A DNA stretch of 64,000 nt from Planctomycetota bacterium (GCA_016213895.1 JACQZJ010000117.1:2361-66360); one strand, 5' to 3'. Shown: positions 10,225 through 30,645, counted from the stretch's first letter. Made by a program: numbers and translations. Notes: generated from the sequence alone by a model not told the origin.

Positions 10225-10242
10225 CCCAGCGGGAGCGCGAGC

Positions 10243-10671: not shown

Positions 10672-10679
10672 GCCGCTTC

Positions 10680-11711: not shown

Positions 11712-11720
11712 CTCTGCCCG

Positions 11721-16121: not shown

Positions 16122-16141
16122 CGCGTGGCCAGTTCGGCTAC

Positions 16142-17113
16142 GTGCTCGCCGGCGTCAACCCTCACATCGTCGAAGCCGACCGTGTCGGGCGCTTCGACAA
16201 TCCCCTCTTCTCGACCACAAGAGCTTTCTTCCTCCGGCCATTCGACTTTCCGACGACGCGTGACATGGTCCGCCGCATTTCGCGCTTCATGGGCCTCCGC
16301 GTCGACGAGGTCGTCTTCAACCTCCTCTTCGAGGAGTACGGAGGGCATCCGTTCCTCGTTAGGCAGGCCTGCAGTCAGCTCGCACGGCATGTGCCGACCC
16401 GGCCCGGACAGCTGACGGCCGCCCTCTTCCAGAACGAGCGCGCGGCAATCGGATTGACCCTCCAGCGCAACGTTCGGCAGATCCTCAACGTCCTCGCCAT
16501 CTGGTACCCGGATGAATACGAGATGGTACAGCTGCTGGCACAAGGCGACGCGGTGAGCTTCATCGAGTTTGCGGTCGGAAGCGCCGAGTTTACCCAACAC
16601 GTCGAGGGATACGGTCTCGTCCGAGACGCGCGGACTGACCCCAGAATATCGCTTGGACTTGTCCGCAGCCACCTTGCCCGACAGCCGCGGCGGGCAGAGG
16701 AATCTGACCCGACAGATCAGGAATCCTTGGTGGTCGAGGTTTCGCGGCGACGCAACCGTATCGAACGTGCAATGCGGCGATTCCTTCGAGAGGGACTACT
16801 CTTCGCTCACGGCAAGAAGGCAATGGCCGAGGCAATGGCGGCGCTGCCCGAGGAGCGGCGCGCCATACTAGCGCAGTTCGGTTACGATCAGATGTGGACT
16901 GAACTGTACTTCAATGAGCTAACATCCATGCTCGATCTTCACTTCTCAGTCTTCCAGAAGCGATGGGGTGCGGACAAAGCATCGGTCATCCAATGGATGA
17001 ACCACGTAAACCGTTGCCGGTCAGACGCGCATGCCAAGCGACTTGGTGCAGACGACGTGGCGTACCTTCGCGTATGCTTTAAGCGGCTAGAGGAACTGCT
17101 TGAGCTTCAGTGA
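16142..17113 (+). CDS. C-terminal continuation of the ATPase (after a +1 frame change) ending in a Swt1-like HEPN motif
   Basis: The frame is open upstream of the annotated GTG across the 16119 TAA of the previous ORF. C-terminal NHVNRCRSDAHAK fits the R-x4-6-H HEPN motif. The ATPase body (Walker B region) would be expected here. Confidence 0.4.
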   Translation: MLAGVNPHIVEADRVGRFDNPLFSTTRAFFLRPFDFPTTRDMVRRISRFMGLRVDEVVFNLLFEEYGGHPFLVRQACSQLARHVPTRPGQLTAALFQNERAAIGLTLQRNVRQILNVLAIWYPDEYEMVQLLAQGDAVSFIEFAVGSAEFTQHVEGYGLVRDARTDPRISLGLVRSHLARQPRRAEESDPTDQESLVVEVSRRRNRIERAMRRFLREGLLFAHGKKAMAEAMAALPEERRAILAQFGYDQMWTELYFNELTSMLDLHFSVFQKRWGADKASVIQWMNHVNRCRSDAHAKRLGADDVAYLRVCFKRLEELLELQ

Positions 17114-17373
17114 CCATCGCCGTCGCAGCCATGGACGCATCGACGCAGTCCTGCAGGTTCTCCTGCATCACCACCGGCGTGCTTTGGAGGCTGCCCTCCG
17201 AGGGGACCGGACGTGCTCATCCAGATTCAGATCCGGCGGGTCCGGCGGCAAGTCAAGGGCAGGCGGGCGGCGCTTGTGCTCCTGCACAGAGCGACCTAAG
17301 AGCTGGAACCTCCGGCAAGGGTGAGCGATCCAGCGAGCGCAGGGTGTGGCACGAGGGACTGGGATGACAGTCT

Positions 17374-20300
17374 GTGACCAGCAGGGAGCGAGGTAACGTG
17401 GCTGAGACCAGCGGCGAGAGTCGGTTCCTCGACGGAGTCGGTCTTCGGCCGGTCACGCTGCCCTCGGGCGGTGCGTTCGTTCCCGTGGGCCTGGCGCTCG
17501 GGCAGGGCACGCAGCCCCAGGAAGTGCTGATCGTCTCTACCGCCGCGGCGCCGAGCGCGACCGCGCTGCGCTCGGCGTGGAGGGCCCGAAACGGCGGCCG
17601 CGCGGCGCCGCTGCTCTTCGTGGCGCTGCACGGCGAGCGGGTTTCCCTGTGCGGGCCGGCCGGCGACGACCCGCCGGCGTACCTGTCCCTGGACCGGGGC
17701 CAGGTCGAGCGGGTTTGCCGCGAGGCGCTCGAGCAGCCCGACCGCCACGCGGCCCTGCGGGCGCTGCGCGACGTGCTCCCGTCGCTCGAGTCCGACCTTG
17801 CGGGCCTGCGCAACGAGGGGTTCCTCGCGACGCACGAGCTGCGTGCGGGCGCAAGGCGTCGCGCCGACTGGGGAGAGGCGGGCCGCAAGGCTCGCGGCGC
17901 CCTCGCCAAGCGCGGCGCGGACCTGCTGCGCGCGCTCGGCTTTGGCATCGAGCGGCACGACGGCGCAACCTCGATCCTGCGCGCGGGCGAGCGCAAGGTC
18001 GCCGTCGCGGTGCTGCTCGCGCGTGATGAGTCGCCCGACCTCTCGGCAGAACGGTTCTCCGGCCTGTCCCCGATCTCATACGCCCTGGCCGTCGCCGACC
18101 GCGAGAGGCTGCCGTGGGTCGTCGTCCAGCACGGCGCGAAGGTGCGTGTCCACCCGACGCAGGTCGGCCAAGGCGTGGGACGGCGCGGACGGACCGAGAC
18201 CTACGTCGAGTGCCACTCCGGGCTCCTCCCCGACGCGGACGCAGCCTACCTCTGGCTGCTCTGCTCGGGCGACGCCCTGGCGCCAGGCGGCACGCTCGAG
18301 CAGATCCTCGAGGCCTCGGGCCGCTTCGCGGGCGACCTGGCCTCGCGCCTGCGCGAGCGGGTCTACCAGTCCGTGGTGCCAGGTCTCGCCCAAGCCATCG
18401 TTCGCACCCGCGGCCTGCGCCAGCCGAGCGCGCAGGACCTGGCCGACACCTACGAGATGGCGCTCACGGTCCTCTTTCGGCTGCTCTTCATCGCCTACGC
18501 CGAGGACAAGGACCTCCTGCCCTACCGCTGGAACGGCCTGTACCAGCGCCGCTCGCTGAAGACCAAGGCGCAGGAGCTGGCGGACCTGGCCCGCAGTGGC
18601 GCTCCCTTCGACGCGAGCGACACGCTCTGGGAAGAGGTGAGCCGCCTCTTCCGCGCCGTGGACCGCGGCAACCGCGAATGGGGCGTGCCGGCCTACGACG
18701 GCGGGCTCTTCTCGGAGGAGCGGGAGGTCTCCGCAGCGGGCGCGCTCCTCGCCGGCCTCTCGATCCCCAACACCGTGTTCGGCCCGGCGCTCGCGGGCCT
18801 CCTGCTCGTCGAGGGTGCCGAGGGCCTCGGTCCTGTGGACTTCCGCAGCCTCGGCGTGCGCGAGTTCGGGACGATCTACGAGGGGCTCCTCGAGAGCGAG
18901 CTGTCGGTCGCGGAGACCGACCTGGCCGTGGACAAGAACGGCGCCTTCCGTCCATGCAGGAAGGCTGAACCGCCCACGGTCGCGCGTGGCGAGGTGTACC
19001 TGCACGACGCCTCGGGGACGCGGAAGTCCACCGGCTCGTACTTCACCAAGTCGTTCGCCGTGGAGCACCTGCTGGAGCGCTCGCTCGAACCCGCGCTCGG
19101 CGAACACCTCGGCCGGCTCGACCAGCTCGGCGAGGAGGAGGCGGGCGAACGCTTCTTCGACTTCCGCGTCGCGGATCTCGCCATGGGCTCCGGGCACTTC
19201 CTGGTCGCGGCCGTGGACCGGATCGAGCGCGCGCTCACGGGCTACCTCTCGCGGCGGCGGCTGCCGGCGGTGGCCGCGGAGCTCTCCAGCCTGCGCGCCG
19301 CCGCGCTGGAGACGCTCGGGCCGCTCGCCGACCAAGTCGAGATCGAAGACACCCAACTCCTGCGCCGCCTGATCGCCCGCCGCTGCATCTACGGCGTCGA
19401 CTTGAACCCGACGGCGCTGCAGCTCGCGCGGCTCTCGATCTGGATCCACACCTTCGTGCCGGGCCTGCCGCTCTCGCTCCTCGACCACAGCCTCGTGCGC
19501 GGCAACTCGCTCGTCGGCATCGGCCGGCTCGCGGAGGTCAAGGAAAAGCTCGAAGAGGGAAGCCTCCCGCTCTTCCCTCTCGATGCGGCCTCGCTGCTCG
19601 GCGCGGCGGCCGAGCCCCTGAAGCGCCTGGCGCGGCTCGCCGACGCCACGGCCTCCGACCTGGCGCGAGCGCGCAGGGCGCAGCAGGCGGCGCTGGCCGC
19701 GGTCGCGCCGGCCGCGGCGCTCTGCGACCTGGTGACCGCCGCGCGACTGGCCTGCGAGATGGTGAAGCTGGACCCCGCGAAGTGGCATGAGATCCGCGAC
19801 CGGCTGCCCGGATCGAAGGAGCACCAGGCCGCTGCCACTCGGCTCGACGGGCTCCACACGTTCCACTTCCCCGTGGCGTTCCCCGAGGTGTTCCTGCGCG
19901 AGCGGCCGGGGTTCGACGTGATCGTTGGGAACCCGCCGTGGCAGGAGGCGACGCTGGAAGAGGACGCGTTCTGGGCAAGGCACTCGCCCGGGCTGCGCTC
20001 GCTCCCGCAGCGCGAGCAGGAGGTGGCGAAAGCGAAGCTCCGCCGCGAGCGGCTCGACTTGTTCGCGACCTACGAGCGCGAGCTGGCGGAGGCAGAGGTG
20101 CTGCGGCGCGCGCTCACGGCTGGGCCGTACCCGGGAATGGGCACGGGCGACCCGGACCTCTACAAGGCCTTCTGCTGGCGCTTCTGGAACCTAGCCTGCG
20201 AGGACGGCGGGCGCATCGGCGTTGTCCTGCCGCGCTCGGCGCTTGCGGCCAAGGGCTCGACGGAGTTCCGGCAGGAGCTGTTCTCGCACGCCGAGGCTGT

Positions 20301-21432
20301 GGACGTGACCACGCTCCTCAACACGAAAGGATGGGTGTTCGACGAGGCGGAACACCGCTACACGATCGGCCTCGTCGCGGTCGCGCGCCGCACGGCCGAG
20401 CGCACTCCCGTCGCGCTGCGCGGCCCCTACCCGAACCTCGAGCGCTACACGGACGGCGTCGTGCGCGAGCCGGTCGTCTTCTACGGCACCGACATTCGGA
20501 CCTGGAACGATACCTCGTCGCTCCCGCTGCTCCCTACAGACGGGTCGGTCGGGGTCTTCGCCCAGCTTCGCAAGGCGCCGCGGCTCGACCTCGACGACAG
20601 GAAGTCCTGGCGTGCCCGGCCGCACACCGAGCTGCACGCCACGAACGACAAGGGCCTCATGGACCTCAAGTCCAAGGGCCGGCCGAAGGGCTTCTGGCCC
20701 GTCTACAAGGGCGAGTCGTTCGACCTATGGACTCCCGACACAGGGACCTACTACGCCTGGGCAGATCCGGAGAAGCTGCTGCCGCACCTCCAGGACAAGC
20801 GCCTGCGCGGCGGGCGGAACCGCAAGTCGCCCTTCGCCGAGTTCGACGTGCGCGTACTCCGCGACCAGAAGACGCTGCCGTGCCTGCGGCCGCGGATCGC
20901 CTTCAGGGACATCACGAACCGCACGAACCAACGTACCGTGATCGCCGCACTCGTGCCTCCGGACGTGTTCGCCACGAACAAGGGGCCATACCTCCTCTGG
21001 CCCCGTGGCGATGCAGGCGATGAGGCGTACCTTCTCGCCGTCCTCTCCTCGCTTCCCCTCGACTGGTACGCCCGCCGGTTCGTCGAGGTGAACGTGAACT
21101 TCTTCGTCTTCAACCCGTTCACAATCCCTCGCACGCCGGCCGAGCACCCGCACCGCCGTCGCGCCATCCAGTTGGCCGCTCGCCTCGCCTGCCCCGACGA
21201 CCGCTTCGCCGTCTGGGCCAGGGAGGTCGGCGTCGCCTGCGGCCCGCTGGCCGCTGACGAGAAGGACGACATGATCCGCGAGCTCGACGCCGTCGTCGCC
21301 CACCTCTACGGCCTCTCGGAGAAGCACCTCATCCACATCTTCGAGACCTTCCACGAGGGCTGGGACTGTGACGTGCGCCTGCGCGCGACGCTGAAGCACT
21401 TCCGGGACTGCAAGCGGAGGGCCACGCCATGA
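17374..21432 (+). CDS. large N6-adenine DNA methyltransferase, type IIG / BREX-PglX-like (1352 aa)
   Basis: Motif I ADLAMGSGHFLVAAVD (about aa 600) and motif IV VIVGNPPWQEA (about aa 850), gamma-class order. About 600 aa N-terminal region with possible PD-(D/E)xK-like HDGATSILRAGERKV. About 450 aa C-terminal target-recognition-like region. TGA overlaps the ATG of the next gene (ATGA). Confidence 0.75.
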   Translation: MTSRERGNVAETSGESRFLDGVGLRPVTLPSGGAFVPVGLALGQGTQPQEVLIVSTAAAPSATALRSAWRARNGGRAAPLLFVALHGERVSLCGPAGDDPPAYLSLDRGQVERVCREALEQPDRHAALRALRDVLPSLESDLAGLRNEGFLATHELRAGARRRADWGEAGRKARGALAKRGADLLRALGFGIERHDGATSILRAGERKVAVAVLLARDESPDLSAERFSGLSPISYALAVADRERLPWVVVQHGAKVRVHPTQVGQGVGRRGRTETYVECHSGLLPDADAAYLWLLCSGDALAPGGTLEQILEASGRFAGDLASRLRERVYQSVVPGLAQAIVRTRGLRQPSAQDLADTYEMALTVLFRLLFIAYAEDKDLLPYRWNGLYQRRSLKTKAQELADLARSGAPFDASDTLWEEVSRLFRAVDRGNREWGVPAYDGGLFSEEREVSAAGALLAGLSIPNTVFGPALAGLLLVEGAEGLGPVDFRSLGVREFGTIYEGLLESELSVAETDLAVDKNGAFRPCRKAEPPTVARGEVYLHDASGTRKSTGSYFTKSFAVEHLLERSLEPALGEHLGRLDQLGEEEAGERFFDFRVADLAMGSGHFLVAAVDRIERALTGYLSRRRLPAVAAELSSLRAAALETLGPLADQVEIEDTQLLRRLIARRCIYGVDLNPTALQLARLSIWIHTFVPGLPLSLLDHSLVRGNSLVGIGRLAEVKEKLEEGSLPLFPLDAASLLGAAAEPLKRLARLADATASDLARARRAQQAALAAVAPAAALCDLVTAARLACEMVKLDPAKWHEIRDRLPGSKEHQAAATRLDGLHTFHFPVAFPEVFLRERPGFDVIVGNPPWQEATLEEDAFWARHSPGLRSLPQREQEVAKAKLRRERLDLFATYERELAEAEVLRRALTAGPYPGMGTGDPDLYKAFCWRFWNLACEDGGRIGVVLPRSALAAKGSTEFRQELFSHAEAVDVTTLLNTKGWVFDEAEHRYTIGLVAVARRTAERTPVALRGPYPNLERYTDGVVREPVVFYGTDIRTWNDTSSLPLLPTDGSVGVFAQLRKAPRLDLDDRKSWRARPHTELHATNDKGLMDLKSKGRPKGFWPVYKGESFDLWTPDTGTYYAWADPEKLLPHLQDKRLRGGRNRKSPFAEFDVRVLRDQKTLPCLRPRIAFRDITNRTNQRTVIAALVPPDVFATNKGPYLLWPRGDAGDEAYLLAVLSSLPLDWYARRFVEVNVNFFVFNPFTIPRTPAEHPHRRRAIQLAARLACPDDRFAVWAREVGVACGPLAADEKDDMIRELDAVVAHLYGLSEKHLIHIFETFHEGWDCDVRLRATLKHFRDCKRRATP

Positions 21433-22832
21433 GCTCCGACGAGCCCTCGGTGACACAGCGACCGGGGAGCGGTGCTGGCGCCCCGGCGAGCACCAAGTGG
21501 AAGGCGCACCGCGTCAGGGCCGGCTTGCACCACTGGGAGGACGATGAACCGCCGGCGGACCCGGGTCAGCACCGAAAGCGCATCGAGCCGTGGCTTGCCG
21601 CCCTGCTCCAGGCCGAGCACGTGAGCCTCCTCATCGGGGGCGGGATCACGATCGCGGTCGCGAAGCTCGCGGGCGCTCCGATCGTCGACATGAAGGCGAC
21701 CCCATTCACGTGCGATCTTGCTGCCGCGGTGGACAGGGCCGCCAAGGCGACCGCCCGCCTTACCGGCCGTGGCGAGGCCAACATCGAGGACCAGATCCGT
21801 GCGGCTCGCGAGCTGATCGGGGGTCTGCGCATCGTGGCCGCAGACGGCGATCAGGGCCTCTTCGGCGTTCGGCCAGGGGAGCTTCTCGCCGCGTGGCAAG
21901 ACGCGGTCGACGAACGCTTGCGATCCTTGCTGCGCGGCGTACTGCGGACCGAGCGCGGGATCGAGCAAGCGCTCGGTTCGCCAGGCAGCGACGGGGACCG
22001 GATTCGGCGGATCCTCTGTTCCTTCCTGCTCTCCTTCGCAAGTCGCACGGCCACCCGCGAACGCCTGCACATCTTCACCACGAACTACGACCGCGTTGTG
22101 GAGCGCGGCTGCGACCTCCTGGGGCTGCACGTCCTCGACCGGTTCGTCGGTCGGCTGAAGCCGATCTTCCGTGCATCCCGGCTCGGAATCGACCTCCACT
22201 ACAATCCGCCGGGCATCCGCGGCGAGCCCCGCTACTTGGAGGGCGTCGTCCGCCTGACCAAGCTCCACGGGTCCATCGACTGGCGACACGAAGGAAGTGG
22301 CGAAGGTGGCCCACGGATCGTGCGCGCGGCACTGCCTTTCGGGGCACCCGATGACCACCAAAAGCTGCCGGAGCACCCGCGCGATGGTCTGATCGTGTAC
22401 CCGAACCCGGCCAAGGACACGGAGACGCTCGAGTACCCCTACGCTGAGCTGTTCCGCGACCTGGCGGCAGCCGCCTGCCAGCCGAACGCAGTGCTCGTCA
22501 CCTACGGCTACGGCTTCGGCGACGACCACATCAACCGCGTGTTGCGCGACACGCTGACGATACCCTCCACTCACCTCGCGATCCTCTCCCGCGACGGAGC
22601 CTCGGGACGGATCCAGCGCTTCGTCGAGGCCACGGGCCGCGACGAGCAGATCACGCTGCTCCTCGGCGGCCACTTCGGCGATCTTGCGACGCTCGTCGAG
22701 TACTACCTGCCGAAGCCCGCGATCGACAGGACGACTTGGCGCATGGTGGAGCTCCTCAACCGGCGCACGCAGCATGGTGCGAACGAGGCGAGATCCGCGT
22801 CGGACGAACCCGATGCTGGAGGTCCGGAATGA
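21429..22832 (+). CDS. SIR2-like domain protein (SIR2_2 family, predicted NAD+-hydrolysing defence effector)
   Basis: HIFTTNYDRVVERG and TKLHGSIDW motifs, with an N-terminal Rossmann GGG patch (HVSLLIGGGITIAVAKLAG). ATGA overlap with the methyltransferase and with the HerA gene. Confidence 0.7.
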   Translation: MSSDEPSVTQRPGSGAGAPASTKWKAHRVRAGLHHWEDDEPPADPGQHRKRIEPWLAALLQAEHVSLLIGGGITIAVAKLAGAPIVDMKATPFTCDLAAAVDRAAKATARLTGRGEANIEDQIRAARELIGGLRIVAADGDQGLFGVRPGELLAAWQDAVDERLRSLLRGVLRTERGIEQALGSPGSDGDRIRRILCSFLLSFASRTATRERLHIFTTNYDRVVERGCDLLGLHVLDRFVGRLKPIFRASRLGIDLHYNPPGIRGEPRYLEGVVRLTKLHGSIDWRHEGSGEGGPRIVRAALPFGAPDDHQKLPEHPRDGLIVYPNPAKDTETLEYPYAELFRDLAAAACQPNAVLVTYGYGFGDDHINRVLRDTLTIPSTHLAILSRDGASGRIQRFVEATGRDEQITLLLGGHFGDLATLVEYYLPKPAIDRTTWRMVELLNRRTQHGANEARSASDEPDAGGPE

Positions 22833-24967
22833 CCTCCCTCATCGAGGCGCTCGGCGACCGCGCCATCGGGGCCGTGGAGGAGGTCTCCGCAAACGCGATC
22901 TCCGTGCTCCTCGATCCCGACGCCCCGCAGGCGACCGCTCTCAACGCGGGTAGCCCCGCTGGGTTCCCACGGATCAACGGGTACCTCCTCGTTCCCAACG
23001 AGGGTGGCGCGACGGTAGGACTCGTCACGCGAGTCCAGATCGTGCGGCTCCCGTATCCGAAGCGTCGCGGGATGCAGGACTTCGGGCTTGTGGACCTGCC
23101 GTTCCCGGCTCGTGTGCTGTCGCTGACGCCCCTCGGGACTCTGCTCGCCAGGGCCGGAGGTTCTGGAAGGGACCTGAGCTTCCGGGTTCGCCGCGGCGTC
23201 GACGTCTTCCCGTCCGTCGGCGACCCCGTGGTCCTGCCGACGGAAGCACAGCTCCGGGCGATCGTCGAGGGCGAGGATGATGGACAGGCCCGGCGCATTC
23301 TCCTCGGCACATGCCCCACGGCCGCGAGTGCACCGGTACACGTGGATCCCGACAAGCTCTTCGGGCGCCACCTCGCCGTGCTCGGCAACACCGGCGCAGG
23401 CAAGTCCTGCTCGGTTGCCGGGCTCATCCGCTGGTCGCTCGACGCGGCGCGTAGGGCGAGGACGGAAGCCGAGCGGGGCGATAAGCCCAACGCGCGCTTC
23501 ATCGTGCTCGATCCGAACGGCGAGTATGCGAAGGCCTTTGCCGGGCTCAACGCTCGCCTGTTCCAGGTCTCGCCCCAGGGTGACGGGAAGGCACTCAAGG
23601 TCCCGGCGTGGCTCTGGAACGGGGAGGAGTGGGCAGCTTTCACGGGCGCAGCGCCGGGCGTGCAGCGGCCGATCCTGTTCGATGCAATCCGACGCCTGCG
23701 GTCGGGGGCCGGGACACCGGATACGTTCCAGTCTCGCGCTCGCGGTCGGATCAGACGGTACCGGACGGGGCTACGGCTCAAGGTTCAGGGAGGAGACCAC
23801 CTCCAGGCTGGCAGGCGAGAGGGAGTGGCCCAACTCCTCCTGAATTGTACGCAGGACTTCGAGGATCTTGCAGGAGACGCGGAGTGCTCTGATGAAGGCT
23901 TGAGAGACCAGTTCCGTTCAGTCGCGAAGAAGTGTCGGGAGGTCGAGGAAGCGGCCCGAGGCAAGACTCGGGACGGTGGACACTGGCACAACGATTTTGC
24001 GGAGACGAACCTCGAAACAGTTCAAGCGGCGCTGGGCGAAGTCGCCTCCGCTGTGGGATTGTCCGAGGACGAGTCCGGTCTGAGCGAGGACGCACCGCGG
24101 TTCTTCCCGGCAAGGGAACTGCCCGGCTTCGTGGACGCCCTGGCGGCAGACGCGACGGGCCGCGACCTGGCCCAATTCGTGGACTCGCTCAATCTTCGCA
24201 TCCGAGGTCTCTTCGCCGGGGGACCGCTGGCGTCTGTGCTCGATCCTGGGGACTCGCCTTCGGTGACGCTGGATGAGTGGCTGACCGATCATGTTGGCGC
24301 AGACGAGGCGGCCAACGGAGCCCTAGCGATCGTCGACCTCTCCCTGGTCCCGTCCGAGGTCATCCACATCGTCGTGTCTGTCCTGGCACGCATGGTGTTC
24401 GAGGCGGTGCAGCGCTACCGGCGGACTCACGCATCCGTGCTGCCTACCGTTCTGGTTCTGGAGGAAGCTCACACTTTCGTCCACCGCGACCTGACCGCTG
24501 ACGGGGCGCCGCCGGCCGGCAGGGTCTGCTGCCGGACCTTCGAGCGGATCGCCCGGGAGGGACGGAAGTTCGGGCTCGGTCTCGTCCTCGCCTCGCAGCG
24601 TCCGTCCGAGATGTCGGCCACCGTGCTCTCCCAGTGCAACACCTTCCTGCTGCATCGGATCGTCAACGATCGCGACCAGGACCTCGTCCGACGTCTCGTG
24701 CCAGACGCGCTCGGCGACTTGCTGCGCGAGCTACCGAGCCTTCCCTCCCGGCGGGCGATCCTCCTCGGCTGGGCCGCTCCGGCTCCAGTGCTCATGGAGA
24801 TCCGGGAGGTGCCCGAAGCTCAGAGGCCTCACTCGCCGGACCCGGACTTCTGGGACGTCTGGACAGGGAAGAGCCCGCGCGGGATCGACTGGAAGGTGAT
24901 TGCTGATGCCTGGACAGGCACGAAGGAGCTGGGAGGACTTGCCGAGCAAGGAGCCGAACTGTGGTAG
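22829..24967 (+). CDS. HerA-like (FtsK/HerA superfamily, DUF87) ATPase, partner of SIR2
   Basis: Walker A LAVLGNTGAGKSCSVAGL, Walker B VLVLEEAHTFV, arginine-finger region ASQRPSEMSATVLSQCNTFLLHRI. Start set at the ATG overlapping the SIR2 stop. Confidence 0.8.
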   Translation: MTSLIEALGDRAIGAVEEVSANAISVLLDPDAPQATALNAGSPAGFPRINGYLLVPNEGGATVGLVTRVQIVRLPYPKRRGMQDFGLVDLPFPARVLSLTPLGTLLARAGGSGRDLSFRVRRGVDVFPSVGDPVVLPTEAQLRAIVEGEDDGQARRILLGTCPTAASAPVHVDPDKLFGRHLAVLGNTGAGKSCSVAGLIRWSLDAARRARTEAERGDKPNARFIVLDPNGEYAKAFAGLNARLFQVSPQGDGKALKVPAWLWNGEEWAAFTGAAPGVQRPILFDAIRRLRSGAGTPDTFQSRARGRIRRYRTGLRLKVQGGDHLQAGRREGVAQLLLNCTQDFEDLAGDAECSDEGLRDQFRSVAKKCREVEEAARGKTRDGGHWHNDFAETNLETVQAALGEVASAVGLSEDESGLSEDAPRFFPARELPGFVDALAADATGRDLAQFVDSLNLRIRGLFAGGPLASVLDPGDSPSVTLDEWLTDHVGADEAANGALAIVDLSLVPSEVIHIVVSVLARMVFEAVQRYRRTHASVLPTVLVLEEAHTFVHRDLTADGAPPAGRVCCRTFERIAREGRKFGLGLVLASQRPSEMSATVLSQCNTFLLHRIVNDRDQDLVRRLVPDALGDLLRELPSLPSRRAILLGWAAPAPVLMEIREVPEAQRPHSPDPDFWDVWTGKSPRGIDWKVIADAWTGTKELGGLAEQGAELW

Positions 24968-24978
24968 GGAGGCTCCGC

Positions 24979-26124
24979 ATGATCCGCGTGGAGATCCAAC
25001 CCCAAATGCTGCGCTGGGCACGCGAGCGCGCCGGCCTCAGCGTGGCGATGCTCGCCAAGCGCTTCCCCAAGCTCGACGCCTGGGAGCGCGGCGAGGCGAG
25101 GCCCACGCTCAACCAGCTCGAGAGCTTCGCCAGGGCCACGTGCACGCCGGTCGGCTTCCTGTTCCTGCAGGAGCCGCCGGTGGAGAGGGTCCCGATCCCC
25201 GACTTCCGCACGGTGGACAACATCCACGTCGGACATCCGAGCCCCGACCTCCTGGACACCGTCTACATCTGCCAGCAGCGACAGGAGTGGTACCGAGACT
25301 TCGTCCGGTCCACGGGCGAGGATCCCCTGGTCTTCGTCGGCTCGGCGCAAGCGGGCGACGACGTGGTGACGACCGCCTCGCGCATGCGGCGGGCGGTCGG
25401 GTTCGACCTCGAGGAGCGCCGCCGGATGCCGACCTGGACCGAGGCCCTGCGGCGCTTCATCGAGCGGGCCGACACTCTCGGCGTCCTGGTCATGTGCAGC
25501 GGCGTGGTGGGAAGCAACAACCGCCGGCGGCTCGATCCCGGCGAGTTCCGAGGCTTCGCCATCGCCGACGGCCTGGCTCCTCTCGTGTTCATCAACGGCG
25601 CGGACACCAAGGCCGCGCAGATGTTCACGCTGGCGCACGAACTTGCGCACATCTGGCTCGGCGAGACCGCGCTCTCGGACGCGCGCGCGGCGGCGCTTCC
25701 GGATCACGACGTCGAGCGCTGGTGCAACCTGGTGGCGGCGGAGTTGTTCGTGCCTCTCGCCACGATGCGCGCCGAGTACCGTCCCGACTTGCCGCTGCGA
25801 GCGGAGATGGACCGGCTGGCGCGGCGCTTCAAGGTCAGCACGCTGGTCGTGCTGCGGCGGATCCACGACGCCGGCGGCCTCACCCGCGAGGAGCTGTGGG
25901 CCGCGTACGAACGGGAGGTGGAACGGCTGCGCGCCCTGCCGCGGGGCAGCGGCGGGAACTTCTACCTGACCCAGGCCGCCAGGGTCAGCGAGCGCTTCGC
26001 GCGCGCGCTCGTCATGAACACCTTGGAGGGCCAGACGCTCTATCGCGACGCCTTGCGCATGCTGGGCTTCTCCAAGGTCGGCACCCTGCACGAGCTGGGA
26101 CGGAGCCTGGGAGTGCTCGCCTGA
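24979..26124 (+). CDS. XRE-type HTH domain fused to ImmA/IrrE family (M78) zinc metallopeptidase
   Basis: N-terminal HTH (MLRWARERAGLSVAMLAKRF), HEXXH at TLAHELAHIWLGE. RBS GGGAGG 6 nt before the ATG. 12 nt after the HerA stop. Confidence 0.75.
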   Translation: MIRVEIQPQMLRWARERAGLSVAMLAKRFPKLDAWERGEARPTLNQLESFARATCTPVGFLFLQEPPVERVPIPDFRTVDNIHVGHPSPDLLDTVYICQQRQEWYRDFVRSTGEDPLVFVGSAQAGDDVVTTASRMRRAVGFDLEERRRMPTWTEALRRFIERADTLGVLVMCSGVVGSNNRRRLDPGEFRGFAIADGLAPLVFINGADTKAAQMFTLAHELAHIWLGETALSDARAAALPDHDVERWCNLVAAELFVPLATMRAEYRPDLPLRAEMDRLARRFKVSTLVVLRRIHDAGGLTREELWAAYEREVERLRALPRGSGGNFYLTQAARVSERFARALVMNTLEGQTLYRDALRMLGFSKVGTLHELGRSLGVLA

Positions 26125-26636
26125 TGGGGTACCTGCTCGACGCCAACGTGTTCATGCAGGCAAAGAGGTTCCACTACGGCTTCGACTTCTGCCCGGCGTT
26201 CTGGGACTGGCTGGTGGCGCGCAACGCCGCGGGCGACGTCTTCAGCATCGAACGGGTCGAGGACGAGATCCAGGCGGGGGGCGATCAGCTCGCGGAGTGG
26301 GCCGCCGAGCGCGGCTCCGGCTTCTTCCTCAAGCCCGACGCCGCCATCCTGGCCGCACTGCGGAAGGTCAGCGCCTGGGTCACCGCCAAGGCCTACGAGC
26401 CGGCCGCCGTCAGCACGTTCCTCCAAGTCGCCGACTACTACCTGGTCGCGCACGCGCTTGCCCACGGGCTGACCGTCGTCACCCACGAGAAGGCCTCCAC
26501 ATCGACGAAGACGGTCAAGATCCCGGAGCCATGCATCGGCCTCGGGGTCAAGTGCATGAACCCCTTCGAGATGCTGCGGCGCGAGCGGGCCCGCTTCGTC
26601 CTCGGGCCATCCGGGGCAGGGAGCTCTGGTCCATGA
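26124..26636 (+). CDS. DUF4411 family PIN-like domain protein (usual partner of ImmA/IrrE proteases)
   Basis: MGYLLDANVFMQAKRFHYGFDFCPAFWDWL N-terminus is characteristic of DUF4411. ATGA overlap with the ImmA gene. Confidence 0.6.
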   Translation: MGYLLDANVFMQAKRFHYGFDFCPAFWDWLVARNAAGDVFSIERVEDEIQAGGDQLAEWAAERGSGFFLKPDAAILAALRKVSAWVTAKAYEPAAVSTFLQVADYYLVAHALAHGLTVVTHEKASTSTKTVKIPEPCIGLGVKCMNPFEMLRRERARFVLGPSGAGSSGP

Positions 26637-27334
26637 CCACCGCCACCATCTTCGTCAGCAACGTGCAGAAGGAGCTGGCCGAGGAGCGGCGGGTGGTCAA
26701 GGCGTTCGTCGAGGGCGACCCGTTGCTGCGTCGCTTCTTCACGGTGTTTCTCTTCGAGGATCTGCCGGCCGCGGACGCCCGCACCGATGCCGTGTACCTC
26801 GATGAGGTGGACTGCTCGGCGCTGTACGTCGGCCTCTTCGGGAGCGAGAACGGCTTCGAGGACGCAGAGGGCGTCTCTCCTACCGAACGCGAGTTCAACC
26901 GGGCCACCGAGCGGAGCACACCGCGGCTCATCTTCGTCAAGGGAACGGACGACCGCGCGCGGCATCCGAAGATGGCGGCGCTGGTCCATGGCGCCGGGAA
27001 CGAGCTGATCCGCCAGCGCTTCCGGGACATTTCCGAGCTGCCGGCCGCGCGTGTCCGCCGGACCCCCGAAGTCACCCCCGAAGTCGCCCCCGAAGTCACC
27101 CCGGAAGTCACCCCGGAAGTTCGCCTCGTGCGAGCCCTCCGTAGAGAGATGACACGCCACGAGCTCCGGGAGGCTCTCAGGCTCAGGGATGACAAGCACT
27201 TCCGCCAGGCGTTCCTCTACCCGGCGATCGAGGCTGGATTGGTCGAGATGACGATTCCGGACAAGCCCCGCAGCAGCAAGCAGAAGTACCGCCGTACCGC
27301 CAAGGGCACGGCAGCAGCAAGGGGCAAGAAGTGA
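26630..27334 (+). CDS. DUF4062 (TIR-like) domain protein with (TPEV)5 linker repeat and C-terminal wHTH (…EMTIPDKPRSSKQKYRRTAKG)
   Basis: N-terminus IFVSNVQKELAEERRVVKAF…VYLDEVDCSALYVGLFGSENGFE resembles DUF4062. The C-terminal tail resembles the DNA-binding wHTH found at the ends of RecG-C / Fic / AlbA_2 proteins. 7-nt overlap upstream, GTGA overlap downstream. Confidence 0.5.
   Translation, partial: SMTTATIFVSNVQKELAEERRVVKAFVEGDPLLRRFFTVFLFEDLPAADARTDAVYLDEVDCSALYVGLFGSENGFEDAEGVSPTEREFNRATERSTPRLIFVKGTDDRARHPKMAALVHGAGNELIRQRFRDISELPAARVRRTPEVTPEVAPEVTPEVTPEVRLVRALRREMTRHELREALRLRDDKHFRQAFLYPAIEAGLVEMTIPDKPRSSKQKYRRTAKGTAAARGKK
27062..27121 (+). repeat. 12-bp tandem repeat x5 (CCCGAAGTCACC) encoding (TPEV)5 inside the DUF4062 gene
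   Basis: Direct reading: acccccgaagtc / acccccgaagtc / gcccccgaagtc / accccggaagtc / accccggaagtt. Confidence 0.8.
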
Positions 27335-30300
27335 AGGATCTCGACGAATCCGACGCCCCGGCCGCCAGGCCCCTGTTCATCGACAACCGCGAAGGGAACA
27401 CCCTCGCGCGGGCGATCACGGCGCACCTGGCGACCCTGCGGCGCGCAGGGCTCATTCCCGCGGAATTGTGCGTCGCGAGCTGCTACTTCAACCCCCAGGG
27501 ACTGGAGCTGATCGCCGGGGAGGTGCGGCACGTGCCGCGCGTCCGACTGCTGCTCGGCGCGGACCCGACGCCCGAGGCGTTCCTTCCGCAGCGTACGCCC
27601 TACGACCCCACCGAGCCCGAATTCACGCACCAGCGCGTGAGCCAGGGGCTCGCGCGGCTCGAGCGCGCGCTCCGGCAGGATCGCGACCTCCTCCCCTTCA
27701 GCCTGGAGGAGGATGGCGCGATCCGGCACCTGCTCGACTTCCTGCGCTCGGGCCACATCGAAGTGCGCCGCTACGAGGGTCACTTCCTGCATGCCAAGGC
27801 GTTCGTGTTTCGCGGTGCAGAGCGGGGGATCCTCGCCGGATCGGCCAACCTCACGCGCGCCGGACTCGAGACCAACCTGGAGCTGGTGCTGGGCCACCAC
27901 CAGGATCCGCTCGTCGCGCGCGTCGAGGAGTGGTTCGAGTCGCTCTGGCGCGAGGCGGCGCCGTTCGACTTGGCAGCCATCTACGCGGAGCTGCTGGCCG
28001 AGGTGCCGCCCTACCTGGTCTATCTGAAGGTCCTCTGGCACCTCTACCACGCCGAGCTGGAGCAAGAGGAGAAGGAGACGGGCAGAATCCCGATCACGAC
28101 CTTCCAGAAACATGGCGTGTGGCGCGCGCGGAAGATCCTCGCCAGGTACGGTGGGGTGATGATCGCCGACGGCGTAGGGCTGGGGAAGACCTTCACGGCG
28201 GGTGAGATCATCCGCGACTACCGCGAGCGGCGGCAGCGCGTGCTGCTCGTCTGCCCCGCCAGCCTGCGCGACACCACCTGGGCGCGCTTCCTGAACGACC
28301 ACCAGCTCCTCGTGGAGTGTCTGTCCTACGAGGAGCTGGCCAACGACGCACAGCTCGGCGGGGACAAGAGCCGCCTGAAGAACCCGCTCGACGACTACGC
28401 CCTCGTGGTCGTGGACGAGGCGCACAACTACCGCAATCCCGACACCGCCAAGCGGGCCGCGATCCTGCGGCGGCTGCTCGCTGGGAAGCGGCGCGACCTG
28501 GTGCTTCTGACCGCGACGCCGGTCAACAACTCGCTCTGGGACCTCTACCACCTGCTGCGCTTCTTCATGAAGCAGGACGCCTGGCTGGCCGACCGCGGCG
28601 TGCTCTCGATGCGCGAGCGCTTCGAGCAGGCCATGCGCGCTGATCCCTTCAACCTGAGCCCGGATTTGCTCTACCCGATCATCGACGCGACGACCGTCAA
28701 GCGCACGCGGCGGTTCATCAAGAAGCACTACGCGAGCGACATGATCCGCGGCCCGGACGGACGCCTGGCGGCGATCCGTTTCCCGAAGCCCGTCGCCCTG
28801 TCGATCGGCTACGACCTGGACGCGGCCCTGCCGGGCTTCCTCGCCCGCCTCGAGGAGATCCTCATGCCCGAGGGCGGGCGCCCCCTGCTGCACATGGCCC
28901 GCTACCAGCCCGAACGCTACCCCGCGGACGGGAGCGACGCCGGCGACGACACGGCGCTGGTCGGACTGCTGCGCTCGGCGCTTCTGAAGCGCTTCGAGTC
29001 GTCGGGCGAGGCGTTCCGGCGCACCGTGGTGCGGATGATCCGGCAGCACGAGATCTTTCTCGAGGCGCTCTCGCGTGGCTGGATCGTGTACAGGGAGTTC
29101 TTCCGGGAGATGTCGGCGGCCGAGGACGAGGGAGACAGCGAGGAGATCATCGAGGCAAGCGAGCAGGTCGAGGACGCCTCGGCCTTCGACGTGGCGCGGC
29201 TCGGCGCGGACGTGCGGTCGGACCTGGCACTCCTGCGAGAGATGGCGGCCGAGGCGGCGAAGGTACGGCCCGAAGACGACCCGAAGCTCGCGGCGTTGGT
29301 CGAGACGCTGGCCGAGTGCGCGCGGCAGGCCGACGCGGAGGCGGCCGACGAGGAGGACGCGCACCAGAACCGCAAGGTACTGGTCTTCTCCCACTACGAG
29401 GACACCATCGACTGGATCGAGGAGCACCTGCGGAAGGCGATCGAGCGCGACGCGCGCCTGGCGGCGTATCACGGCCGCGTGGCGTCGGTGAGCGGGGCCG
29501 ACGAGCGCGGCGGCGTGGCGCGGGACAAGGCGCTGCATGGGTTCGCGCCGATCTCGACGGGGGCGCTGCCGCCCGACGCCGAGGACCGCTTCGACCTGCT
29601 GCTTTGCACCGACGTGCTGGCGGAGGGCATGAACCTCCAGCAGTGCCGGAACGTCGTGAATTACGACCTGCCCTGGAACCCCATGCGCCTGGTGCAGCGG
29701 CACGGCCGCGTGGACCGGATCGGGAGCGCGCATCCGAAGGTGTTCCTGCGCACCTTCTTCCCCGGCGCGCAGCTCGACGCCATGTTGAACCTCGAGGCGC
29801 GGGTGCGCCGGAAGCTCGCGCAGGCGGCGGCGTCCGTGGGCGTGGAGGAAGCGCCCATCGAAGGTGGCGCCGAGGCGGAGCGCTCCTTCGCGGAAACCCG
29901 CGAGGAGATCGAGAGGCTGCACCGCGAGGACGCTTCGATCTACGAGGCCGGGGGCACCGAGGGCGCGGCCCAGACCGGCGAGGAGTACCGGCAGGAGTTG
30001 CGGCGAGGCCTGGAGAGGTACGGCGATGCCATCCACGACCTCCCGTGGCGTTCCGGCTCTGGGATGCGCAAGGGGGACCGCGCCGGGCACGTCTTCTGCG
30101 CGACGGTCGGCGACCGCGTCTACCTGCGCTTCGTACCGCGCGAGGCGGCGGCCGAGGTCGTCGGCGAGCTCGGAACCTGTCTGCGCCTGATCGAGTGCAG
30201 CGAGCACACGCCGCGGGTCTTGAGCACGGAGATGGTGCTGGCGGCCTACGACGCCTGGGCGCGAGCGCGCCAGGGCATCCTCGCCGCCTGGACCTTCGAG

Positions 30301-30645
30301 ACCGATCCGGCCAACCTGCAGCCCAAGATCAGGAAGCTCAACCGCGACGTCGCCGCGTTCCTGCGCGCGCACCCGCCCGACGTGGACCAAGAGCGTCTCA
30401 ACCGGGCGCTCGACGCGGTGGAGTCACCCTGGCCGCGGCGGGAGGAGCATGCCCTGCGCGATGCCTGGGAGCGCACATACGCGTCGAACACAGAGAAGGC
30501 GAAGGCCCTCGTCGAGCAGATCGAGAGCATCGGAGCTGAGCCCTTCCACGCCCCGGACCCGCTGCCGCCGATTGCGGAGGAGGAGATCCACTTGGTCGCC
30601 TGGTTGGCGCTCGAGGCCGAAGTAGCACAGCGAGGCGCCGGGTGA
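27331..30645 (+). CDS. PLD-family (HKD) nuclease domain fused to SNF2-family helicase/translocase (1104 aa)
   Basis: Single HKD motif EGHFLHAKAFVFRG…GSANLT near the N-terminus. SNF2 motifs: ADGVGLGKT (I), VVVDEAHNYRN (II), LLTATPVNNS (III), LLCTDVLAEGMNLQQ (V), QRHGRVDRIG (VI). GTG start overlaps the upstream TGA. Confidence 0.8.
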   Translation: MKDLDESDAPAARPLFIDNREGNTLARAITAHLATLRRAGLIPAELCVASCYFNPQGLELIAGEVRHVPRVRLLLGADPTPEAFLPQRTPYDPTEPEFTHQRVSQGLARLERALRQDRDLLPFSLEEDGAIRHLLDFLRSGHIEVRRYEGHFLHAKAFVFRGAERGILAGSANLTRAGLETNLELVLGHHQDPLVARVEEWFESLWREAAPFDLAAIYAELLAEVPPYLVYLKVLWHLYHAELEQEEKETGRIPITTFQKHGVWRARKILARYGGVMIADGVGLGKTFTAGEIIRDYRERRQRVLLVCPASLRDTTWARFLNDHQLLVECLSYEELANDAQLGGDKSRLKNPLDDYALVVVDEAHNYRNPDTAKRAAILRRLLAGKRRDLVLLTATPVNNSLWDLYHLLRFFMKQDAWLADRGVLSMRERFEQAMRADPFNLSPDLLYPIIDATTVKRTRRFIKKHYASDMIRGPDGRLAAIRFPKPVALSIGYDLDAALPGFLARLEEILMPEGGRPLLHMARYQPERYPADGSDAGDDTALVGLLRSALLKRFESSGEAFRRTVVRMIRQHEIFLEALSRGWIVYREFFREMSAAEDEGDSEEIIEASEQVEDASAFDVARLGADVRSDLALLREMAAEAAKVRPEDDPKLAALVETLAECARQADAEAADEEDAHQNRKVLVFSHYEDTIDWIEEHLRKAIERDARLAAYHGRVASVSGADERGGVARDKALHGFAPISTGALPPDAEDRFDLLLCTDVLAEGMNLQQCRNVVNYDLPWNPMRLVQRHGRVDRIGSAHPKVFLRTFFPGAQLDAMLNLEARVRRKLAQAAASVGVEEAPIEGGAEAERSFAETREEIERLHREDASIYEAGGTEGAAQTGEEYRQELRRGLERYGDAIHDLPWRSGSGMRKGDRAGHVFCATVGDRVYLRFVPREAAAEVVGELGTCLRLIECSEHTPRVLSTEMVLAAYDAWARARQGILAAWTFETDPANLQPKIRKLNRDVAAFLRAHPPDVDQERLNRALDAVESPWPRREEHALRDAWERTYASNTEKAKALVEQIESIGAEPFHAPDPLPPIAEEEIHLVAWLALEAEVAQRGAG

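Follow-up and report, generated by a model that had tools for sequence, protein, structure and literature searches.

A putative two-gene restriction-modification-like system, pairing an adenine methyltransferase with an HKD-SNF2 protein, that carries nested defence modules in a Planctomycetota operon

We propose that the locus at positions 17374-30645 of the window (the whole 64,000-nucleotide stretch of Planctomycetota DNA analysed here) is probably a two-gene restriction-modification-like system, consisting of a large N6-adenine DNA methyltransferase (G1) and an HKD-SNF2 protein (G7), in which three independent defence modules are nested between the two core genes to form one compact operon. 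An earlier, sequence-only reading of this DNA had offered both a stacked defence operon and a single integrated seven-gene system. The gene-neighbourhood survey that it had suggested supports the former in a specific form, that of a core pair with inserted modules, and argues against the latter, as five of the seven genes show independent occurrence.

Organization of the Operon

The locus comprises seven plus-strand ORFs packed without interruption, with overlaps of 1-4 nt or, in one case, an 11-nt gap at the junctions, and GC3 values of 0.79-0.93 over all seven that reflect the bias of genuine genes. This ORF reading of 17374-30645 bears out, with small corrections, the same-strand chain of seven genes over 13 kb that had been described before. 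Three of the overlaps were already correctly placed, namely ATGA at 21429-21432 between G1 and G2, ATGA at 22829-22832 between G2 and G3 with GGAGG upstream, and GTGA at 27331-27334 between G6 and G7. The gap with a ribosome-binding site before G4 also stands, with the TAG of G3 (24965-24967) followed by the RBS-like GGGAGG and the ATG at 24979, and only its length changes, from 12 to 11 nt. The two other junctions had been misread: G4 and G5 share 1 nt in TGATG (26122-26126) rather than an ATGA at 26124, and the supposed 7-nt overlap of G5 and G6 at 26630 is a 4-nt ATGA at 26633-26636, the start proposed at 26630 being wrong because the in-frame codon there is TCC. The domains previously assigned to the seven proteins were all upheld by Pfam and PADLOC profile searches.

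Neither a convincing terminator nor a convincing sigma-70 promoter emerged from a scan of the operon interior. Terminator-like sites numbered four, versus 6.2 expected by chance, and promoter-like sites numbered zero, which leaves the scan uninformative. The consensus used in it may not suit Planctomycetota. Transcription of the seven genes as one unit fits these scans, which fall short of proof. There are no tRNA genes within the window, no convincing island-flanking direct repeats around 15.0-30.8 kb, and no integrase among the flanking ORFs that were scanned.

Pairing of G1 and G7 Across Genomes

G1 and G7 are a co-inherited pair over many phyla, and the association is near-obligate in both directions. 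At least 382 GTDB species genomes encode a relative of G1, and the pair spans many bacterial phyla and an archaeal plasmid, from Planctomycetota to Halobacteria. The loci examined were the best-scoring 80 of each scan. A search from the G1 side placed a same-strand G7 downstream in 70 of the 82 non-duplicate loci. Of the 12 loci without it, eight run on for no more than about 1.2 kb past G1, and the remaining four (4.2-10 kb of flank) contain cargo genes and lack G7. An orphan G1 with ample flank was seen only once, in locus L074. When searched from the G7 side, G1 lies upstream in 60/80 metagenome loci, and 14 loci lack room for it. The neighbourhood test proposed in the sequence-only reading gives, for G1 and G7, a nearly exceptionless pairing in both search directions. 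The identities of the two proteins to those of the window are also correlated (r = 0.87, n = 110).

The two genes are directly adjacent in 72 of 130 two-gene loci (~55%), and the other 58 carry inserts. The minimal pair is found on plasmids of cultured hosts, where it is annotated only as 'hypothetical protein' together with 'helicase-related protein' or 'helicase, SNF2 family'. An apparent fusion of G1 and G7 in L076 was rejected, as a TAA stop at 13886 intervenes. Literature searches for a methyltransferase paired with an HKD-SNF2 protein returned Hma, BR, DISARM and ARMADA, none of which matches, and the G1-G7 pair, a widespread two-gene system, is apparently unnamed.

The Core Proteins

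G1 (17374-21432) encodes 1352 aa, or 1344 aa from the GTG at 17398. The latter is more likely the true start, with AGGGAGCGAGG upstream, and the NCBI protein is also of 1344 aa. An Eco57I/N6 methyltransferase domain is recognised by Pfam and PADLOC, and residues 46-1349 match the PADLOC type IIG model REase_MTase_IIG (PDLC03620) at 8e-291. The protein carries NPPW, and the adenine methyltransferase motifs are conserved across its homologues. G1 resembles PglX and DrmMI; the similarity to PglX is weak (PADLOC E 7.5e-7; NCBIfam 30 bits versus a cutoff of 500) and the PADLOC matches to DrmMI are confined to residues 530-857. No canonical PD-(D/E)xK triad was visible among the invariant residues at 190-260 in an alignment read by eye, and a Foldseek search gave no matches. 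No hypervariable target-recognition region was seen in G1, which is unusual relative to classical restriction-modification enzymes with diverse specificities.

In G7 (27331-30645, 1104 aa) a nuclease domain of the PLD family with a single HKD motif stands at the N terminus and is fused to a SNF2/RapA-like ATPase, with a conserved C-terminal region. Pfam identifies PLDc_2 (residues 133-206) followed by SNF2-rel_dom and Helicase_C, and the PADLOC matches are to 'HKD+Snf2' (2e-55) and DrmD (4e-46). Among 11 diverse homologues the invariant or near-invariant positions include H154, K156 and G170-S-x-N173 of the nuclease, as well as Walker A (GLGKT, 283-287), DEA (362-364) and motif VI of the ATPase. 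The closest solved sequence is RapA. None of the NCBIfam cutoffs is reached by G7 (DISARM_DrmD, 187 bits versus 610; phospholipD_antiphage, 144 versus 1100), and its partial match to the PADLOC DrmA model (2.7e-28) stems from the SF2/SNF2 helicase core and not from a separate DrmA gene. Two relatives of G7 were found in viral contigs with a single-sequence query.

The Embedded Modules

G2 (21429-22832, 467 aa) and G3 (22829-24967, 712 aa) are the SIR2 NADase-type subunit and the partner HerA ATPase of a SIR2-HerA pair, as defined by adjacent SIR2 and HerA genes, which here overlap by 4 nt at the ATGA at 22829. G2 matches PADLOC SIR2 (PDLC04079, 7e-166) over its full length and Pfam SIR2_2, with the motifs TTNYD (residues 217-221) and HGS (280-282) intact, and G3 matches PADLOC HerA (PDLC04098, 2e-260) over its full length and Pfam DUF87, with a Walker A motif, GNTGAGKS, at residue 186. 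Their GC3 values are 0.84 and 0.79, respectively, versus 0.92 for the core genes. Because both miss the NCBIfam equivalog cutoffs (113 versus 500 and 205 versus 850), they represent a divergent subfamily. The pair resembles SIR2-HerA (Gao et al. 2020, 'Her'/Nezha) in its full-length subfamily matches and intact motifs, and differs in this divergence and in being nested in the operon of another system. The nearest homologues share 73-87% identity and occur either as stand-alone pairs of mobile elements, adjoining integrases or IS elements (L085, L087) or in a conjugative element (L086), or inside an Hma operon (L088, 73% identical to the pair in the window).

G4 (24979-26124, 381 aa) is a fusion of an Xre-type HTH with an M78 (ImmA/IrrE) zinc peptidase (Pfam Peptidase_M78, 3e-16, and HTH_31; HELAH at residue 220) that resembles RmrA and CapP (PADLOC RmrA, 1e-15; capP, 3e-11). 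Its partner G5 (26124-26636, 170 aa) is a predicted PIN-like nuclease or toxin that matches Pfam DUF4411 over its full length (2e-55), with a weak PIN match. HTH-DUF955 together with DUF4411 constitutes a predicted three-component toxin-antitoxin module (PMC5499597), and the architecture of G4/G5 is exactly as described there, differing in that it is nested within the operon of another system. As regards RosmerTA, G4 resembles the antitoxin RmrA, and G5 is no catalogued RmrT toxin. Pairs of the G4-G5 type lie between G1 and G7 in 23/124 loci (~19%), and their presence follows the core phylogeny in part (r = 0.53). The module may be more than a mere passenger. It is unlikely that ImmA switches the whole system by its protease activity, as had been suggested, since it is absent from about 80% of core pairs and travels with DUF4411 as a predicted toxin-antitoxin-like pair of its own (PMC5499597).

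G6 (26633-27334, 233 aa) retains, according to Pfam, DUF4062 and a C-terminal Fic-like_C wHTH, the latter not having been noted before. When aligned with its homologues in L003 and L002 it lacks about 255 residues, including HATPase_c_4, and is, judging from this alignment, an in-frame internal deletion of a DUF4062-HATPase_c_4-wHTH protein of 488-521 aa. A plus-strand 12-nt tandem repeat of about five copies (27063-27122, family D1), which encodes (T/A)PEV repeats, falls at the edge of the alignment gap, the deletion junction. In L006, L056 and L063 the same slot holds relatives of G6 with Schlafen/AlbA_2 in place of DUF4062.

The G1-G7 Junction as a Cargo Slot

These arrangements are best read with the G1-G7 junction as a slot in which second-line modules are carried as cargo and co-expressed with the core genes. 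The commonest insert is the HTH-M78 peptidase with DUF4411, and other inserts include Schlafen- or DUF4062-HATPase_c_4-wHTH proteins, PD-Lambda-5, PDC-S06, Ppl, Shedu SduA, PDC-M61A/B, DUF6119, an HNH protein, Mrr_N, MerR-HicB and ORF6N. SIR2-HerA is a rare insert, seen in 3/130 loci in addition to the window, and the order G1, SIR2, HerA, G6-like, G7 recurs in L003 and L105. The contents of the slot are nearly always defence-related, that is, known or candidate systems. Wherever both core genes are present, the cargo modules that were identified share their strand and are tightly packed, so that at a minimum expression is coupled. In L003 a 4-nt overlap is found at each junction. The tight 4-nt overlaps at cargo borders show long residence and co-translation, and some functional integration of cargo with core may therefore exist. 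Insertion hotspots in helicase-methylase systems have been published before: inserts, Ppl among them, occur in about 66% of hma loci (PMC11232893), and cargo is reported within BREX and BR loci (PMC12839542). The occurrence of the same nesting in Hma, BREX and BR systems suggests selection.

Proposed Mechanism and Alternative Explanations

It is plausible from the domain content that methylation marks self DNA, that the PLD-SNF2 protein restricts, and that the inserted modules are a back-up. G1 would methylate adenines in host DNA, and G7, which probably dimerises because each protein has only a single HKD motif, would build one nuclease site per dimer and cut unmodified incoming DNA through ATP-driven SNF2 translocation, probably guided by G1. 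Such an action would parallel that of HsdR with HsdM/S, of Type ISP enzymes, or of the HKD-SNF2 effector of Type-2 BREX-related systems. SIR2-HerA, acting by NAD+ depletion, HTH-M78/DUF4411 and the decayed DUF4062-wHTH protein would be autonomous second-line modules, probably acquired as cassettes exchanged through the conserved genes on either side. In the slot they could be expressed together with the restriction genes and might also stand guard in case a phage blocks restriction. A stronger version, which we regard as tentative and would not expect to hold in full, is that G1/G7 is an unrecognised, widespread restriction-like defence system without DUF499 or DrmAB, that the junction is a selected slot, and that the translationally coupled modules (SIR2-HerA, ImmA/DUF4411, Schlafen/DUF4062-HATPase_c_4 and others) are abortive-infection guards, triggered once restriction has been disabled by a phage.

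That all seven genes form one integrated system, with methylation as the self-mark, restriction by PLD-SNF2, a SIR2-HerA NADase arm and an ImmA switch, would account for their translational coupling on one strand and for the repeated gene order in L003 and L105. This reading is highly improbable, and the gene neighbourhoods have gone most of the way to refuting it: the junction is empty in 72/130 core pairs, SIR2-HerA (3/130 loci plus the window) and ImmA-DUF4411 (~19%) are absent from most, other genomes fill the slot with different systems, the closest SIR2-HerA pairs stand alone or sit in an Hma operon, and G6 is a deletion remnant. At the opposite extreme the arrangement might lack functional meaning, the junction being merely a tolerated landing site whose inserts neither need nor help the core pair, as the high diversity of the cargo, the autonomy of SIR2-HerA elsewhere and the decay of G6 would suggest. 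We consider this doubtful, though worth serious attention, given that the cargo is same-strand and tightly packed, with 4-nt overlaps throughout L003, that it is nearly always defence-related, and that equal nesting in Hma, BREX and BR suggests selection.

The core itself can also be read otherwise. Despite its extensive match to the type IIG model, G1 is unlikely to be a self-sufficient type IIG enzyme (a PADLOC/REBASE-style class) with G7 as a separate helicase-nuclease defence protein travelling along, since our own reading of the alignment shows no canonical PD-(D/E)xK triad among invariant residues 190-260, Foldseek yields nothing, the linkage to G7 is near-obligate both ways with correlated identities, and an orphan with ample flank appears just once. 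It is rather improbable, too, that the pair represents a reduced form of some named system, either class 1 DISARM (DrmMI together with a DrmD to which DrmC is fused) or BREX-related Type 2 (N6-MTase with HKD-SNF2). The best named matches are indeed DrmMI and DrmD, and an HKD domain N-terminal to SNF2 equals the architecture of the Type-2 BR helicase (PMC12839542), but the operon and its flanks lack both DrmA and DrmB, DUF499 and DUF3780 are absent in the window with no DUF499 homologue in the ~170 related loci by single-query tblastn, and the NCBIfam scores for DrmD and phospholipD_antiphage are far below cutoff.

A two-gene core with nested modules, if it works as inferred, would be a minimal addition to the helicase-methylase defence family that includes DISARM, BREX and BR/Hma, and one that current tools would log as a lone 'type IIG' enzyme or overlook. 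The pair is common, also on plasmids of culturable hosts, and is thus directly testable. Moreover, the same flanking genes with a dozen different inserts or none are a natural experiment on why abortive modules nest in restriction operons, and guard, back-up and co-regulation hypotheses are thus open to cassette swapping. The slot is also a possible anchor for discovery, with unannotated occupants such as DUF6119, the HNH protein and proteins of 648 and 748 aa as good candidates for novel defence genes.

Comparison With Known Systems

A close parallel in architecture is Type-2 BR, which combines an N6-MTase with a helicase that has an N-terminal HKD endonuclease and a Swi2/Snf2 core (Rakesh & Krishnan, NAR 2026, PMC12839542) and is probably the older 'PLD-helicase' candidate system of PADLOC and NCBIfam. 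Both are predicted to be restriction-modification-like, G7 has HKD N-terminal to SNF2 and G1 is an N6-MTase with NPPW, and auxiliary or back-up effectors are nested in both loci, including Schlafen-HATPase_c_4-wHTH proteins. BR systems are, however, defined by the DUF499 AAA+ ATPase, with DUF3780 in 98% of Type 2 taxa (PMC12839542). Pfam gave no DUF499 match in the operon or flanks, a single-query tblastn of limited sensitivity found none in the window or ~170 related loci, and no gene of the locus matches a stand-alone DUF3780. G7 is also far below the cutoff of the PLD anti-phage family, and G1 is of ~1350 aa and of the Eco57I/PglX/DrmMI type. Hma, or Type-1 BR, consists of the SNF2-nuclease HmaA, the methylase HmaB and the DUF499 protein HmaC (PMC11232893). 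It is likewise a helicase-nuclease and methylase operon that serves as a hotspot for defence-gene insertion, and it differs in its C-terminal PD-(D/E)xK nuclease (NOV_C) versus the N-terminal HKD of G7, in its methylase family (DUF1156 in L088) and in its third core gene, the DUF499 ATPase. With DUF499 and DUF3780 not found, membership in BR Type 2/Hma was rejected.

Class 1 DISARM provides the closest named profiles, DrmMI for G1 and DrmD for G7, and a PLD domain as in DrmC, but here PLD and SNF2 are joined in a single protein, the scores are far under the equivalog cutoffs, and no DUF1998 (DrmB) or DrmA-type gene was found among the seven genes, the flanks and the further large ORFs of the window that were scanned. 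Membership was rejected, as the DrmA/DrmB core is missing and the DrmMI/DrmD similarity is only partial. BREX was rejected, with no Pfam or PADLOC match to PglZ or BrxC and only weak PglX similarity. G1 matches PDLC03620, as expected of a type IIG enzyme with methyltransferase and target-recognition parts in one polypeptide; a stand-alone type IIG enzyme was rejected in view of the G7 partner in 70/82 loci, with most of the other 12 contigs ending early.

Type I and Type ISP enzymes are alike in logic only, as a translocating ATPase-nuclease acting with a self-marking methyltransferase. The motor of the G1-G7 pair is SNF2 versus HsdR-type, its nuclease is HKD versus PD-(D/E)xK, and there is no separate specificity subunit. 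In EcoprrI, the anticodon nuclease PrrC is a latent suicide effector inside a restriction-modification operon that fires upon restriction block. The operon described here is similar in encoding effectors within a putative restriction operon, with the interaction of cargo and core being hypothetical, and the guard reading, if true, would generalise the PrrC/EcoprrI principle over many phyla.

Gene Chain and Domain Content

The core of the locus is a conserved two-gene, restriction-like and apparently unnamed pair, formed by the first (G1) and last (G7) of seven consecutive genes, and the slot between them holds two modules that by sequence comparison are intact and autonomous, SIR2-HerA (G2 and G3) and HTH-M78/DUF4411 (G4 and G5), together with one decayed accessory gene, G6. 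All seven are + strand ORFs that fill 17374-30645 of the window (GC ∼70%), the distribution of GC over codon positions is in each that of a genuine gene (GC3 0.79-0.93), and the very compact single-strand chain described in the sequence-only reading is real. Read directly on the + strand, the junctions are ATGA at 21429 (G1/G2) and 22829 (G2/G3), an 11-nt gap with GGGAGG followed by ATG at 24979 (G3/G4), a 1-nt overlap, TGATG, at 26122-26126 (G4/G5), ATGA at 26633 (G5/G6) and GTGA at 27331 (G6/G7); the fourth and fifth replace an ATGA at 26124 and a 7-nt overlap at 26630, both of which had been misread. The start of G1 is probably the GTG at 17398, downstream of the Shine-Dalgarno-like AGGGAGCGAGG, and the NCBI model of the protein (locus tag HY812_14615, 100% identical) has 1344 aa. 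A simple scan found no promoter-like site within the operon and terminator-like sites below chance expectation, which would fit a single transcription unit but falls short of proof, and we infer that the slot modules are co-expressed with the core.

Pfam and PADLOC bore out every domain call made from the sequence. G1 is an Eco57I-type N6-adenine methyltransferase (NPPW at 853) that matches the PADLOC type IIG model over its full length (8e-291) and has a methyltransferase core similar to that of DrmMI. SIR2 (G2, 7e-166) retains its TTNYD and HGS motifs and HerA (G3, 2e-260) its Walker A motif, while G4 fuses an Xre-HTH to an M78 peptidase (ImmA; HELAH motif) that is RmrA- and CapP-like. G5 is a PIN-like DUF4411 protein (Pfam 2e-55), G6 combines DUF4062 with a Fic-like_C winged helix, and G7 has one HKD domain followed by a SNF2/RapA-like ATPase with GLGKT and DEAH motifs. 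No NCBIfam model reached its cutoff for G1 or G7.

A Conserved Pair with Variable Content

The sequence-only reading had allowed for either a stacked defense operon or a single integrated system of seven genes, and the latter is unsupported, as the comparison of gene neighborhoods shows a constant G1/G7 frame with varying content between. Homologues of G1 are numerous and show good conservation, and in the homologous loci L001, L002 and L003 the orthologues of G1 and G7 frame genes that differ from one locus to the next. With each GTDB species represented by one genome, a scan gave 382 genomes with a G1 relative, and in 70 of the 82 non-duplicate loci analyzed a G7 gene lies downstream on the same strand. 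In eight of the other 12 the sequence stops within ∼1.2 kb past G1; the last four extend 4.2-10 kb beyond it without G7, three with cargo there and the fourth, L074, treated as an orphan G1. This locus (Prochlorococcus sp. AG-363-P19, 10001-23996) encodes a G1 homologue of ∼50% identity with all downstream genes on the opposite strand and no G7 relative in its 24 kb, and it is the sole clear orphan seen with ample flank. Metagenomes scanned in the opposite direction, from G7, gave 80 loci, of which 60 have G1 upstream and 14 lack room for it; in six, 1.5-3.7 kb of other sequence lies there instead. The identities of G1 and G7 to those of the window are correlated (r = 0.87, n = 110), and in the 130 loci with both genes they are adjacent or overlapping in 72, separated by an insert of <2.2 kb in 33 and by a larger one in 18; the other seven, from the genome set, have gaps of intermediate size (150-1000 bp).

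The pair is also found, in its minimal adjacent form, on plasmids of cultured organisms: pCRE138 of Rhodococcus erythropolis (H351_RS29020/29015), pTC1 of Paenarthrobacter aurescens (AAur_pTC10286/10285) and pHLAC01 of the archaeon Halorubrum lacusprofundi (HLAC_RS18405/16640). Its annotation there is only a "hypothetical protein" with a "helicase-related protein" or "helicase, SNF2 family". On a contig classed as viral in IMG/VR (IMGVR_UViG_2840042175_000011), positions 10001-13348 encode a homologue of G7 with 51% identity; the pair may therefore at times be carried by prophages, or this contig may be misclassified.

In the homologue alignment G1 shows no variation in its methyltransferase motifs, and G7 homologues of 46-82% identity show none, or almost none, in the HxK (H154 and K156) and GSxN of the HKD motif, in Walker A (K286), in DEA(H) and in motif VI. 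Single-HKD nucleases build their nuclease site by dimerization, and G7, with one HKD motif, would likewise dimerize to form such a site; it might then move along DNA that lacks G1 methylation and cut that DNA. Function is, throughout the locus, what we infer. The alignment of G1 (17374-21432) with 106 homologues shows even conservation from end to end (window means 0.42-0.90) and no hypervariable stretch to indicate a target-recognition domain that can be exchanged. This is unusual for restriction-modification enzymes with diverse specificities, and for a methyltransferase family of that kind found in many phyla.

Cargo in the G1-G7 Slot

The ORFs inserted between G1 and G7 were clustered and then annotated. 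The clade of the window is unusually cargo-rich, with inserts in 17 of its 21 members. Across the loci the commonest occupant is HTH-M78 with DUF4411 (23/124), which is patchily spread over four clades of the G7 tree, and the identity of ImmA tracks that of the core in part (r = 0.53) with clear outliers; together these imply repeated acquisition or exchange. In two Rhodothermales loci (L049:14020-18406 and L051:14014-17956) three tandem HTH-M78 paralogues precede one DUF4411 gene. The L001 slot holds PD-Lambda-5_A, a D12 methylase, ImmA and DUF4411. One-off inserts that match catalogued systems are PD-Lambda-5, PDC-S06, Ppl, Shedu, PDC-M61A/B and a PDC-M33A-like protein, and those outside the catalogues are DUF6119, an HNH protein, Mrr_N, DUF4760, MerR-HicB and ORF6N/PDC-S05. 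One large uncatalogued gene occupies each of the slots at L009:14014-15609, L053:14036-15652, L066:14036-15631, L011:14026-15972 and L045:14096-16342; these large single genes encode DUF6119 (531 aa), HNH-containing proteins of ∼535 aa, a 648-aa protein (weak PDC-M33A match only) and a 748-aa protein with no match, and are candidates for new defense genes.

SIR2-HerA occupies the slot in L003, L099 and L105 as well as in the window, and the nearest HerA homologues (73-87% identity) always have SIR2 just ahead in settings other than the slot. These include a site adjoining an integrase and IS elements (L085), a conjugative element in which the pair comes straight after a TrwC relaxase and coupling protein (L086), an integrase/AlpA island (L087) and an operon of the Hma/Type-1 BR kind, where the pair separates the DUF1156 methylase gene from that of the HEPN-DUF499 ATPase (L088). 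The lower GC3 of G2 (0.84) and G3 (0.79) compared with the core genes (0.92) fits a different origin, and by its sequence contexts SIR2-HerA is an autonomous module. Nested in the operon at L088:311-15580 (SNF2-NOV_C, DUF1156 methylase, HEPN-DUF499) are a GmrSD_N protein and, as a second insert, the SIR2-HerA pair, 73% identical to that of the window; hence one cargo family nests in two unrelated helicase-methylase systems.

The relatives of G6 in the slot have an N-terminal Schlafen/AlbA_2 or DUF4062 domain followed by HATPase_c_4 and a winged helix. A 521-aa DUF4062-HATPase_c_4-wHTH protein accompanies an AAA_13/PDC-S06 ATPase in L002, and one of 488 aa accompanies SIR2 and HerA in L003. Compared with these 488-521 aa homologues, G6 is missing ∼255 internal residues, HATPase_c_4 among them, and exactly at the break lie some five copies of a 12-nt tandem repeat (27063-27122), which encode (T/A)PEV repeats. 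Loss of HATPase_c_4 by repeat-mediated deletion is possible, and G6 is best interpreted as the remnant of a decayed gene. Three Rhodothermales loci (L031:13063-14811, L050:14362-16110 and L057:4519-5793, minus strand) show a different, larger cargo arrangement: past G1 comes a G6-family gene in the opposite orientation, then AAA_16-type ATPase genes on the + strand, and the available sequence contains no G7.

Genomic Surroundings

Where scanned, the window outside the operon encodes housekeeping functions (Suf, cysteine desulfurase, a Ser/Thr kinase, HflX, fumarase and glycosyltransferases), which makes the locus a small chromosomal island; searches of the surroundings for a tRNA, an integrase or flanking repeats gave none. 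Immediately 5′ of G1, a low-GC stretch at 15327-17113 (+; GC 0.61-0.64, GC3 0.71) contains two ORFs of 264 and 323 aa, and an 85-codon ORF (17110-17367) lies just upstream of G1. The 264-aa ORF has a P-loop, GLRRIGKTS, close to its end and the 323-aa ORF a terminal RCRSDAH motif that is HEPN-like in appearance (Rx4-6H). Neither matched a family in Pfam, NCBIfam or PADLOC, apart from a single Pfam Octopine_DH match of the 323-aa ORF (E 0.002) under the curated cutoff, and neither has homologues among 170 related loci. They may represent a split or frameshifted ATPase-HEPN defense gene, or a separate unknown system.

Comparison with Known Systems

Limited searches found neither a paper nor a curated model that gives the G1-G7 pair a name. 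The locus differs from DISARM, whose DrmA and DrmB were not found in the operon or the scanned window ORFs. It resembles Type-2 BR in the architecture of an N6-MTase with an HKD-then-SNF2 helicase, but BR is defined by DUF499 and DUF3780, both absent from the window locus and from the related loci examined. The nesting of defense genes inside helicase-methylase operons is an already published pattern (PMC11232893, PMC12839542): ∼66% of Hma loci have inserts such as Septu, PARIS and Ppl (PMC11232893), and auxiliary or back-up effectors are nested in BREX and DUF499-centered BREX-related systems, where Schlafen-HATPase_c_4-wHTH proteins are among the effectors in at least 1017 taxa (PMC12839542). 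HTH-DUF955 with DUF4411 was earlier predicted to be a three-component toxin-antitoxin module (PMC5499597). The nesting principle is thus already known, and what appears to be new is the particular core variant.
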